This document shows positions 1 to 2,443 of a DNA stretch of 2,443 nt, piece after piece. Position 1 is the first letter of the stretch. Each line of letters opens with the position of its first letter. Made by a program: the position numbers and the translations under genes. The DNA is from Naegleria gruberi. Taxonomy: Eukaryota. The notes beneath the pieces were generated by a model. The model searched no databases and was not told the DNA's origin. It was given only the letters and a program-made list of their open reading frames with translations. Where the stretch lies: the NCBI GenBank assembly GCA_000004985.1, contig GG739261.1. One strand, 5' to 3'.

Positions 1-525
1 AGCTCTTTTGGTGATTAAAAAAGGATCTTCAGAAAATCGTACTGCCTCAATCAAGGTTTCATCCGAAAACATTGATAAATCTACAAATCTCAAGTAATAA
101 TAAGGAACTACTTTAACCGCCTGATTCAATATTTCTGGATCATGTTTGAAAGGAGAAAATTCAATAACTCTTCCATTATTTAAAATAGCTGCCAAATTAA
201 TGGCCCTGTCATTCATTAGTGTTTCTGGTAGAAATTTCAATATCATTCCTCTTGTTGATACTATATCCATCACAAATTCATAATCATTTTTCAAACTTTC
301 AGATGCAAGATTGAAAAAATTCGAATCTCTCTGCACAGCCAATGAGATAATTTCCTTATCTGAAGAGAAATGAGGAGCTACATAATTGTAAGCAGTACCA
401 TCCTGCTTAACTGCCTCCAAAACTGTTTCCCTATCTCGTTTCAATTCTTCAGAGGCATAGTAAATGGCAAGGCCTGAATTTTTCACAGCTTGCAAAACTA
501 ATTCCTTATCATTTTTCAGTTCCAT
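1..525 (-). CDS. DUF4116-like tandem-repeat protein, N-terminal 175 codons, ORF continues past window position 1 (3'-partial)
   Basis: The reverse strand reads with no stop from ATG (plus 525-523) down to position 1. The translation is MELKNDKELVLQAVKNSGLAIYYASEELKRDRETVLEAVKQDGTAYNYVAPHFSSDKEIISLAVQRDSNFFNLASESLKNDYEFVMDIVSTRGMILKFLPETLMNDRAINLAAILNNGRVIEFSPFKHDPEILNQAVKVVPYYYLRFVDLSMFSDETLIEAVRFSEDPFLITKRA. It contains about seven repeats of roughly 26 aa with the pattern L-K-x-D-x-E-x-V-L-x-A-V-K-x-x-G-x-A-L-x-Y-A-S, matching my memory of Pfam DUF4116. The six-frame track does not list it because there is no stop inside the window. The true start is uncertain (see findings). Confidence 0.8.
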   Translation of the reverse strand, partial: MELKNDKELVLQAVKNSGLAIYYASEELKRDRETVLEAVKQDGTAYNYVAPHFSSDKEIISLAVQRDSNFFNLASESLKNDYEFVMDIVSTRGMILKFLPETLMNDRAINLAAILNNGRVIEFSPFKHDPEILNQAVKVVPYYYLRFVDLSMFSDETLIEAVRFSEDPFLITKRA

Positions 526-565
526 AGAAACGAATTTCAAATAATCTCCATTCTGAGATGGTACT

Positions 566-663
566 AAGTGACGGTGAAACGGGGGACGGATGAGACGGAG
601 AACACTCAGTTTCTTACTACAGACGGGAGAAGAGCATCCGCTTAATACTGTTGACGGTAAACC
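566..663. repeat. GC-rich (about 50% GC) GACGG island, left arm of a degenerate inverted repeat pair
   Basis: Five same-strand GACGG pentamers lie at 570-574, 585-589, 594-598, 622-626 and 653-657. The terminal direct repeats TGACGGTGAAAC (569-580) and TGACGGTAAACC (652-663) bound them. The surrounding sequence is about 30% GC. The reverse complement of 559-606 aligns block by block with 2008-2100. Confidence 0.6.
617..636 (-). promoter_or_regulatory. Polypyrimidine tract followed by AG on the coding strand upstream of gene 1, candidate splice-acceptor-like signal (cis 3' splice site or trans-splice site)
   Basis: The minus strand reads GATGCTCTTCTCCCGTCTGTAG (plus 638-617). It is followed by a second C/T-rich stretch, TTCTCCGTCTCATCCGTCCCCCGTTTCACCGTCACTTAG (plus 604-566). 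The next AGs on that strand are at plus 566-565 and 556-555, just before the ATG at 525. Plus-strand purine richness makes the whole left island pyrimidine-rich on the gene strand. Confidence 0.25.
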
Positions 664-697
664 AAAATGGAAAATGCACAACCTTAGTAACACCGAT

Positions 698-730
698 AAA
701 TTGAATGATACATTTAATAAAATTGAATTT
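698..730 (+). promoter_or_regulatory. Two same-strand AAATTGAAT motifs 21 bp apart (698-706 and 720-728, the second extending to AAAATTGAATTT at 719-730)
   Basis: The 9-mer is exact and is repeated a third time at 1629-1637. It contains the octamer AAAATTGA, which is known as a Mimiviridae early-promoter element. This orientation would drive plus-strand transcription into the spacer. Confidence 0.3.
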
Positions 731-984: not shown

Positions 985-1130
985 TTTTTATTATTGGACT
1001 TTCATCATAAAATAGTAAATCAATTTTTGGATTATAATTTTTCAAGTTGGTAAACCATCATCGGAACACTCACCAACCGTCATCATAGATATATTTAATA
1101 TAGTAGAATAGTATGGGTGATTTCTATGTC

Positions 1131-1639: not shown

Positions 1640-2004
1640 AAAGATGACCAACTTTTTCAACATCTACACCTTATAGGGATCACACTCATATCAATTAATC
1701 CATATTTTTCATTTTCAGTAAAAAATCAAAATTTGAACTTTCCAAAGTTTACTATTTACCTGAATTGTTTGAGAAGGAAACTTCTCAAAAAAAGAAGGGT
1801 AGTTTCACAACAGTGTTTTAATCAACTAAGTCAAATTATTTCATGTCATTCTTAAATTTGAGACAGAAAGAGAGAAATCTTTGATTTTAGTGAATATTCC
1901 ACAACAGAGGTGTTGTGTTTGTTTGTGAATTTATTTCCATTTTAAATTTTTCCATTTTGGATTTATTATAGAATGATACATTAGTATTTCCCTTAATTCC
2001 ATTC

Positions 2005-2102
2005 TTGCTCCGTCTCTTACTGCTGACTGTCCCGTTTGACAGCTTATTACATCTGACGGATCCCGTTAGACGGGATTTACCGTCACACCGTCAATTAGTA
2101 TC
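2005..2102. repeat. GC-rich (about 48% GC) GACGG/CCGTC island, right arm of the inverted repeat pair
   Basis: It contains CTCCGTCTC (2008-2016), CCCGTTTGAC (2031-2040), GACGG (2055-2059, 2069-2073), CCGTCAC (2080-2086) and CCGTCAATTAGTA (2088-2100). The first island, read in reverse complement, has the same blocks in the same order: CTCCGTCTC, CCGTCCCCCGTTTCAC, CGTCAC, TTAGTA. Confidence 0.6.
2054..2085 (-). terminator. Interrupted GC-rich hairpin in the 3' flank of gene 2, candidate 3'-end formation or termination signal
   Basis: The outer stem pairs TGACGG (2054-2059) with CCGTCA (2080-2085), 6 bp. The inner stem pairs ATCCCGT (2060-2066) with ACGGGAT (2070-2076), 7 bp. The loop is TAG and there is a TTA bulge on the 3' side. 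It starts 47 nt downstream of the gene 2 stop on the coding strand. Minus-strand AATAAA copies follow further downstream at plus 1962-1967 and 1930-1935. Confidence 0.35.
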
Positions 2103-2131
2103 TCCTCCTCCATTCTCTTTGATATATTCCA

Positions 2132-2443
2132 TCATGAGCTCTTTGTTATTCGAATATTTCCTGACCATGTTCTTGGAATATTATTTATCCCAAAGAGTTT
2201 CAAATAGGTCCGTAACCATACAATATCATCTGATAAATCCTCAAGGTTGATCTCATCACTATAATGATGAATAAATACTTGATTAATTAAATCTCTTTCG
2301 AATTTCAATTCATTTGGAATAAACTCAATGGCTGAAGGACAATTTTTCAGAGTTTCCAATATTATTTCTCTATCAAATCTCAATTTTGCATTGGCATATT
2401 GAATCACCATTCCGTTATGTTTACAAAGTTTCAGCACCACTTC
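2132..2443 (-). CDS. DUF4116-like repeat protein, C-terminal 103 codons plus TGA stop at 2134-2132, 5' end outside the window
   Basis: The ORF track gives a minus-strand ORF at 2132..2440. Its first M is really a GTG read as a start, and the upstream codon 2443-2441 (GAA) is also open, so the gene continues off the edge. The translation E-VVLKLCKHNGMVIQYANAKLRFDREIILETLKNCPSAIEFIPNELKFERDLINQV shows two DUF4116-type repeat units. It is followed by a tail of about 45 aa without repeats and then TGA. Confidence 0.8.
   Translation of the reverse strand, partial: EVVLKLCKHNGMVIQYANAKLRFDREIILETLKNCPSAIEFIPNELKFERDLINQVFIHHYSDEINLEDLSDDIVWLRTYLKLFGINNIPRTWSGNIRITKSS

Follow-up and report, generated by a model that had tools for sequence, protein, structure and literature searches.

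Organization of the locus

The window, by which we mean the whole stretch of 2,443 nt that was analysed, is AT-rich (~30% GC) and showed DUF4116-type repeats in three minus-strand reading frames around an insert of 1553 bp (555-2107), which is bounded by terminal inverted repeats (TIRs) and by a target site duplication (TSD). A sequence-only reading of this DNA had described a hairpin at 2054-2085 and had proposed it as a possible mRNA 3'-end signal of an open reading frame (ORF) named 'gene 2'. The features of the locus are listed in order of position:

1-554, minus strand: downstream part of the interrupted DUF4116 gene (DYLKFVSMELKNDKE...), frame 2, E=6e-79, 6 repeats, running off the window
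546-554: left copy of the TSD (CTCCATTCT), exact direct repeat of 2108-2116
555-582, plus strand: left TIR with tip GAGAT, 28-nt inverted repeat of 2080-2107
555-680, plus strand: left GC/CpG-rich arm with six ACGG-core units in one orientation and no stable hairpin
681-1989: AT-rich non-coding interior with stop codons and no family or protein match
1990-2107, minus strand: GC/CpG-rich arm of the right end; of its seven ACGG-core units, five are TIR-consistent and two flipped
2054-2085: the reported hairpin, with the flipped units at 2056 and 2070 paired with the units at 2080 and 2063
2080-2107, minus strand: right TIR, inverted repeat of 555-582, overlapping the hairpin half-stem 2080-2085
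2108-2116: right copy of the TSD (CTCCATTCT), exact direct repeat of 546-554
2108-2178, minus strand: upstream part of the interrupted DUF4116 repeat (YSKNMVRKYSNNKELMMEYIKENG), frame 3, from ~2178 to the insert
2132-2443, minus strand: 'gene 2', a DUF4116 ORF in frame 1, entering at the right edge of the window and closed by the TGA at 2132-2134, E=2.7e-16

Boundaries and composition of the insert

The longest inverted repeat in the window was found between 555-582 and 2080-2107, with a length of 28 nt and 79% complementarity. Both of its tips are directly abutted by the exact 9-bp direct repeat CTCCATTCT, which could not be extended on either side. Among 66 pairs of 9-mer direct repeats in the window this was the only one with inverted-repeat inner flanks (18/22), the next-best pair reaching 13 and the best of 300 shuffles 15. 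Reading the duplication as 8 bp would need a chance 1-nt extension and would throw the TIR tips out of register. The tips themselves read GAGATGG and GAGGAGA, and the ends of the insert are of the form GAG...CTC. A second inverted block (657-674 / 1948-1966, 17/18) extends the similarity of the two arms to ~120-160 nt from the tips. Past the first 28 nt the arms have their motif content and one 18-nt block in common, and a gapped alignment between them was weak and showed no collinear long TIR.

The insert lacked coding capacity. Each of its six frames contains 29-47 stop codons, the longest open stretch comprising 105 codons, and a screen against Rfam at E<=1 returned no family at threshold. 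A match to the mir-5365 precursor at 1822-1894 (plus strand) stayed at 24.8 bits (E = 0.036), where the gathering score is 70, and was regarded as chance. Several smaller structures were also observed in the insert interior. A near-perfect AT-rich palindrome (GGTACATGTGAATTTT/AAAAAGTACATGTACC) is located at 1298-1329 with ~-12.8 kcal/mol, ranking third among the plus-strand structures when all 40-nt windows were scanned, and another copy of ACATGTAC is found just downstream of it at 1339-1346. Second and fourth in the same plus-strand scan were hairpins at 1759-1798 (-13.8 kcal/mol) and 1424-1463 (-12.1 kcal/mol). A short tandem repeat of AATAGTAGT (x 2.3) lies at 965-985.

The insert interrupts a gene encoding DUF4116 repeats

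When the insert is taken out along with a single 9-mer (1562 nt in total), frame 3 runs on into frame 2, and ...NNKELMMEYIKENG is continued by DYLKFVSMELKNDKELVLQAVK.... The rejoined product aligned with the entire Pfam DUF4116 profile (1-49/49) over residues 8-56 with 74.0 bits and without an indel, the two halves alone scoring 13.3 and 60.8 bits. The BLASTP alignment to a metagenomic homologue (P0004) likewise crosses the insert junction uninterrupted. The insert thus split one DUF4116 repeat. Because the deletion rejoins a single repeat, the 25 nt which separate the 'gene 2' TGA from the insert belonged to a coding sequence, rather than to a 3' UTR, until the insertion took place. When both 9-mers were kept the product carried a 3-residue insertion and scored 73.1 bits. 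As this costs just 0.9 bit, the 9-bp duplication is backed mainly by the spacing of the repeat and by its position beside the TIRs.

The best homologues of the host gene were metagenomic DUF4116 proteins with 39-45% identity. A DUF4116 protein encoded on a giant-virus MAG contig of 16-25% GC (IMGVR_UViG_GVMAG-M-3300023179-82_000001, 3001-3867) was 41% identical to the interrupted gene and was its nearest viral relative; judging by these similarities the gene family is shared by giant viruses and cellular metagenome contigs.

A change of frame was also seen upstream of the insertion site. The DUF4116 signal switches from frame 1 to frame 3 on the minus strand at 2132-2190 with an overlap of ~12 codons, and the frame-1 TGA (2132-2134) overlaps an in-frame ATG of frame 3 (2133-2135) as ATGA (2132-2135). 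This switch reflects either two overlapping ORFs or a 1-nt indel near 2183-2190, in which case the gene would be a pseudogene or the sequence in error. No extra DUF4116 repeat was gained when the presumed 1-nt frameshift between frames 1 and 3 was repaired, with 7 stretches found either way.

An interrupted coding repeat might also be explained by an intron, spliceosomal or of the transposon-derived 'introner' type, within a gene that is still functional. On the coding strand the left end of the insert together with the duplication (...CCATCTCAG followed by AAT) would provide a plausible phase-0 3' splice site. At the other junction no suitable donor was found: from the start of the frame-3 ORF to its in-frame TGA the only GT lies in ATGGTC, the putative start, and the only GC in GAGCTC, neither of them near the junction. 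A canonical intron was ruled out because no frame-preserving GT or GC donor occurs at or near the upstream junction before this TGA, which is reached eight codons into the insert. The Rfam screen of the insert also returned no group I or group II intron, and we consider the intron reading as a whole extremely unlikely.

Repeat units in the terminal arms

Both ends of the insert are packed with short units sharing an ACGG core (consensus NRACGGRN). We found 13 such units, 6 in the left arm and 7 in the right arm, located within 126 and 118 bp of the respective ends. The left-arm units (at 571, 579, 586, 595, 623 and 654) are uniform in orientation. In the right arm five units lie on the minus strand (2010, 2032, 2063, 2080 and 2088) and the two flipped ones on the plus strand (2056 and 2070). 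Two units, at 579 and 2032, contain the exact hexamer AAACGG.

The pentamer GACGG/CCGTC, which the sequence-only reading had recognized as common to the hairpin and the left island, occurred 11 times in the window compared to 0.74 expected, a count reached in 0/200 shuffles, and 10 of these sites are located within the two arms (555-680 and 1990-2107). The hairpin is part of this repeat system, as had been suggested, its halves being copies of the GACGG-type unit. The arms further stood out by composition. GC content was 0.47 in the left and 0.475 in the right arm compared to 0.28 in the interior, and the CpG observed/expected ratio of the left and right arms (1.08 and 1.17) exceeded that of the interior (0.38) and of the flanking genes (0.40-0.52). 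Both arms can be described as CpG islands on a CpG-poor background formed by the host genes and the insert interior.

Structure and origin of the hairpin

The sequence of 2054-2085 reads TGACGG-ATCCCGT-tag-ACGGGAT-tta-CCGTCA and forms a hairpin of 13 bp, 8 of them G:C, with a loop of 3 nt and a bulge of 3 nt, exactly as originally described. The 32-mer folded with -17.0 kcal/mol on either strand (ViennaRNA). A scan of all 40-nt windows bore out that no local structure elsewhere in the window is as stable, the lowest energies on the two strands being found at 2047-2086 (plus, -17.7 kcal/mol) and 2050-2089 (minus, -19.9 kcal/mol), followed by runners-up of -13.8 and -12.2 kcal/mol. The significance of the fold was assessed with 200 dinucleotide-preserving shuffles of 2040-2110. 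As DNA this region folded with z = -4.25 and none of the 200 shuffles was as good. The fold of the minus-strand RNA, which had been suggested as a check, was not exceptional, with a z-score of just -1.72 and 10/200 shuffles as good.

With regard to the insert, the hairpin is located 22 nt inside the right tip, and the intact right TIR includes its outer 3' half-stem (2080-2085). To ask whether it represents a functional unit or a degraded inverted-repeat arm, as had been done, therefore poses a false choice. Its stem is made of ACGG-core units: TGACGG (2054-2059) pairs with CCGTCA (2080-2085), and ATCCCGT (2061-2067) pairs with the ACGGGAT unit (2069-2075). Unit identity accounts for 12 of the 13 pairs. 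In a motif-aware null the seven right-arm units were fixed in place and all 128 assignments of orientation were enumerated. A local hairpin of at least the observed stability arose in 16 of these 128 assignments (12.5%), and the mean best hairpin had -13.6 kcal/mol. The folding energy of the right arm as a whole was ordinary, 93/128 assignments being as low or lower. The hairpin is more stable than base composition would give, yet not clearly more so than expected from the repeat cluster itself, since 16 of the 128 orientation assignments are equally stable. It is most economically explained as a side effect of repeats that resemble binding sites and are densely clustered in both orientations. 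Being built from flipped units within the right-end cluster, it would therefore be a structural by-product or at most a local inverted duplication, and a small duplication of this kind is possibly how it originated.

We also weighed whether the hairpin could be a functional cis-element of a transposon, i.e. a cruciform or stem-loop marking the asymmetry of the ends, a recognition site for transposase or a host factor, or a stop for read-in transcription. Asymmetric ends are common in DNA transposons, and here the strongest local structure of the window, placed 22 nt from the tip and overlapping the TIR, is found at one end only, with the best 40-nt folds of the left arm reaching just -8.0 and -8.8 kcal/mol. 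One flipped unit would give a less orderly structure than the nested symmetry seen here (6 bp + 7 bp), and the stability of the hairpin is matched in just 12.5% of the orientation assignments, a proportion that is compatible with selection for it. The ordinary folding energy of the whole arm, the absence of a T-run after the stem and the fact that the unit sequences alone account for nearly all of the pairs speak against a dedicated function, and we regard this explanation as unlikely. A more far-reaching version would make the right-end-specific stem-loop of flipped transposase-binding units a required and conserved recognition structure in an uncatalogued transposon lineage of an unsampled AT-rich protist or giant virus. 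Such a lineage would combine TIR/TSD cut-and-paste transposition with hairpin-guided recognition of one end, and the structure would incidentally end the transcription of interrupted genes. This we consider improbable.

The hairpin as a putative mRNA 3'-end signal

The sequence-only reading had favoured a role of the hairpin in 3'-end formation, polyadenylation or stability of the 'gene 2' mRNA, comparable to the 'hairpin rule' of Mimiviridae. Giant viruses are gene-dense and do not typically contain a 1.3-kb stretch that has 29-47 stops in each frame, which speaks against this comparison. In Mimiviridae, transcripts end and are polyadenylated at hairpin-forming palindromes downstream of the ORF that have no conserved sequence (PMC4402537). 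The locus shows some likeness to this arrangement, with a palindrome tens of nt past a stop codon on the coding strand of AT-rich DNA. The distance to the minus-strand TGA of 'gene 2' was given as about 50 nt and measured 46 nt, the hairpin is stable as minus-strand RNA, two minus-strand AATAAA hexamers (1930-1935 and 1962-1967) follow 87-150 nt further on, and the gene has its DUF4116 relative in a giant-virus MAG.

The surroundings of the hairpin do not agree with this role. Unlike those of Mimiviridae, this palindrome is rich in GC, its repeat unit recurs at the other end of the insert, and the mobile element around it, bounded by TIRs and TSD, interrupts coding sequence. It is not located in a 3' intergenic region after a genuine ORF end; the DNA following the TGA and the sequence past the insert form a single DUF4116 repeat. 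The 3'-end reading fails because the hairpin arrived with the insert, within former coding sequence. The modest z-score of the minus-strand RNA also argues against it. Furthermore, the Mimiviridae early-promoter octamer AAAATTGA occurred 3 times in the window versus 1.09 expected, a non-significant count which was reached in 23/200 shuffles, and in viral contigs neither the exact hairpin nor the TIR pattern found a match. The three octamers are located at 719-726 (plus), 1020-1027 (minus) and 2380-2387 (minus). Nothing positive supports a viral origin of the window, and a 3'-end signal for 'gene 2' appears very improbable to us. Given the AATAAA hexamers, transcription that enters from the host gene may well terminate within the insert, as an incidental effect of the insertion.

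A scan for rho-independent (intrinsic) terminators passed over 2054-2085 on both strands. The hairpin does not qualify as such a terminator because the stem is not followed by a T/U run, the next bases being CACCGTCA on the plus and GATGTAAT on the minus strand.

A probable non-autonomous DNA transposon

Inverted repeats at both ends, a flanking duplication, arms packed with repeats, a non-coding interior and a reading frame that is restored upon removal were found together in this insert. We therefore interpret 555-2107 as a non-autonomous cut-and-paste DNA transposon resembling Mutator-like elements (MULEs), and the hairpin as a by-product of the unit cluster at its right end and not as a 3'-end signal of 'gene 2', with a probability of roughly 70%. 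The transposon would have inserted into the minus-strand coding sequence of a DUF4116-repeat gene and duplicated 9 bp of its target. At each end the TIR would be followed by an arm of ~120 bp, rich in GC and CpG, whose ACGG-core repeats (NRACGGRN) are likely to be the putative binding sites of a transposase, by analogy with Ac/Ds and Mu. The transposase of the family would presumably be supplied in trans. Flipping of two of the seven right-arm units, followed by pairing with two neighbours, would have given rise to the 13-bp interrupted hairpin, which probably came into the former coding sequence with the mobile element. We infer the binding of transposase by the ACGG units, the superfamily, and a hairpin that has no function of its own. 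Likewise, we infer mobility and multi-copy status of the element from the anatomy of its single known copy.

Alternatively, the insert might resemble the germline-limited internal eliminated sequences of ciliates. It would then be removed precisely during development at a 9-bp 'pointer', leaving an intact somatic gene, and the hairpin would belong to the excision signal. Many internal eliminated sequences derive from transposons, a direct repeat does flank an AT-rich non-coding insert here, and removal of the insert with one copy of this repeat restores the ORF. Opposed to this, no in-frame TAA or TAG was seen across ~300 codons of the host, and a ciliate code is not indicated. The ends are not bounded by TA, unlike those in Paramecium and Euplotes, and a plain transposon explains the TIRs and subterminal repeats. 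The chances of an eliminated sequence seem minimal.

Relatives of the element were sought in several collections. The exact hairpin and a degenerate TIR pattern each gave 0 matches in viral contigs, a collection that does not include the window itself. The TIR core pattern found two matches in JGI metagenomes (L003 and L004), both of them single sites on contigs of ~42% GC without further similarity and regarded as chance. One of these, at 5093-5113 on a 174-kb contig of 42% GC (L003, WJXF01000009.1), matched 21/23 bases of the left TIR core (TACTAATTGACGGTGGAACGGGG). The GAGAT tip was absent from this site and no second site was present in the 10 kb covered, and we consider it a chance match. 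Among 185,579 prokaryote genomes the same pattern occurred at 1 single site in an Arenicellales MAG, again taken as chance. A blastn search of the insert against phages and plasmids gave no match. The stop-to-stop translations of the insert were concatenated, with the intention of catching spurious ORFs called on sister copies, and found no match at E<=1 among 5.8 billion proteins. Look-ups for the exact products of the 'gene 2' fragment and three ORFs of the insert recorded none. Neither a second copy nor an empty site or an autonomous partner was found in the viral, metagenome and prokaryote contigs, the phages, the plasmids or the proteins; as none of these collections includes the window, this absence says little.

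What appeared to be two genes, a 1.5-kb spacer and a terminator hairpin would thus be a DUF4116-repeat gene that a mobile element has disrupted, and the annotation calls for correction. Rules of transcription termination in the source genome should accordingly be derived neither from the stop of 'gene 2' nor from the spacer or the hairpin. The hairpin is an ordinary component of a mobile element that is otherwise unrepresented in the collections searched. The termini (GAGAT..ACTAAKTGACGGTG) combined with the ACGG-core units provide a search handle for this transposon family, which had no relatives in these collections, and an empty site, i.e. a paralogue or allele without the insert, would read ...AAAGAGAATGGAGATTATTTG.... 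The one-sided hairpin offers a simple feature for a comparison of conservation among sister copies.

Comparison with known mobile elements

Helitrons and IS200/IS605 elements have neither TIRs nor TSDs, and Helitrons end in 5'-TC...CTRR-3'. The GC-rich hairpin near one end only (22 nt from it) is a feature the insert has in common with these groups. Both were nevertheless ruled out by its TIR, its 9-bp TSD and its GAG...CTC ends.

A closer likeness was found to the Ac/Ds elements of the hAT superfamily. The tips of hAT elements follow a CAGGG/TAGGG-type consensus. The Ac transposase binds AAACGG hexamers cooperatively, which are clustered in the terminal 200 bp, and the TIR of Ac is 11 bp long (PMC3260210). 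The insert shares the clustering of short CGG-containing units at both ends within the terminal 100-200 bp (NRACGGRN compared to AAACGG in Ac), and resembles a Ds-like non-autonomous derivative with unrelated filler. It differs in its TSD (9 bp vs 8), in its tips (GAGAT/GAGGA instead of the CAGGG/TAGGG type) and in the length of its inverted repeat (28 nt vs 11). Membership in hAT was rejected on the length of the duplication and the tip sequence, even though the insert does possess subterminal repeats.

MULEs are characterized by TSDs of 9-11 bp and by TIRs of 100-500 bp that contain the transposase sites (PMC3310237), and the TIR of MuDR starts with GAGAT (GAGATAATTGCC, PMC2563033). An octamer of the left TIR, GACGGTGA (570-577), is also present in the MuDR TIR primer TIRAR (AGGAGAGACGGTGACAAGAGGAGTA, PMC2563033), probably by coincidence. 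The insert departs from MULEs in that its clear inverted repeat spans just 28 nt (79%) and is not a collinear TIR of 100-500 bp, and in that neither a MURA-type transposase nor an autonomous copy was found for it in the collections searched. It agrees with them in its TSD of 9 bp, which falls in the 9-11 bp range (PMC3310237), in its left tip GAGAT, identical to the first 5 nt of the MuDR TIR (PMC2563033), and in the GC-richer terminal arms of ~120-160 bp, which bear the presumed transposase sites on either side of a non-coding filler. By the 9-bp duplication and the GAGAT tip, a Mutator-like element is the best fit, an assignment that we make with moderate confidence. The classification as a TIR-transposon with subterminal transposase sites is a much firmer claim.
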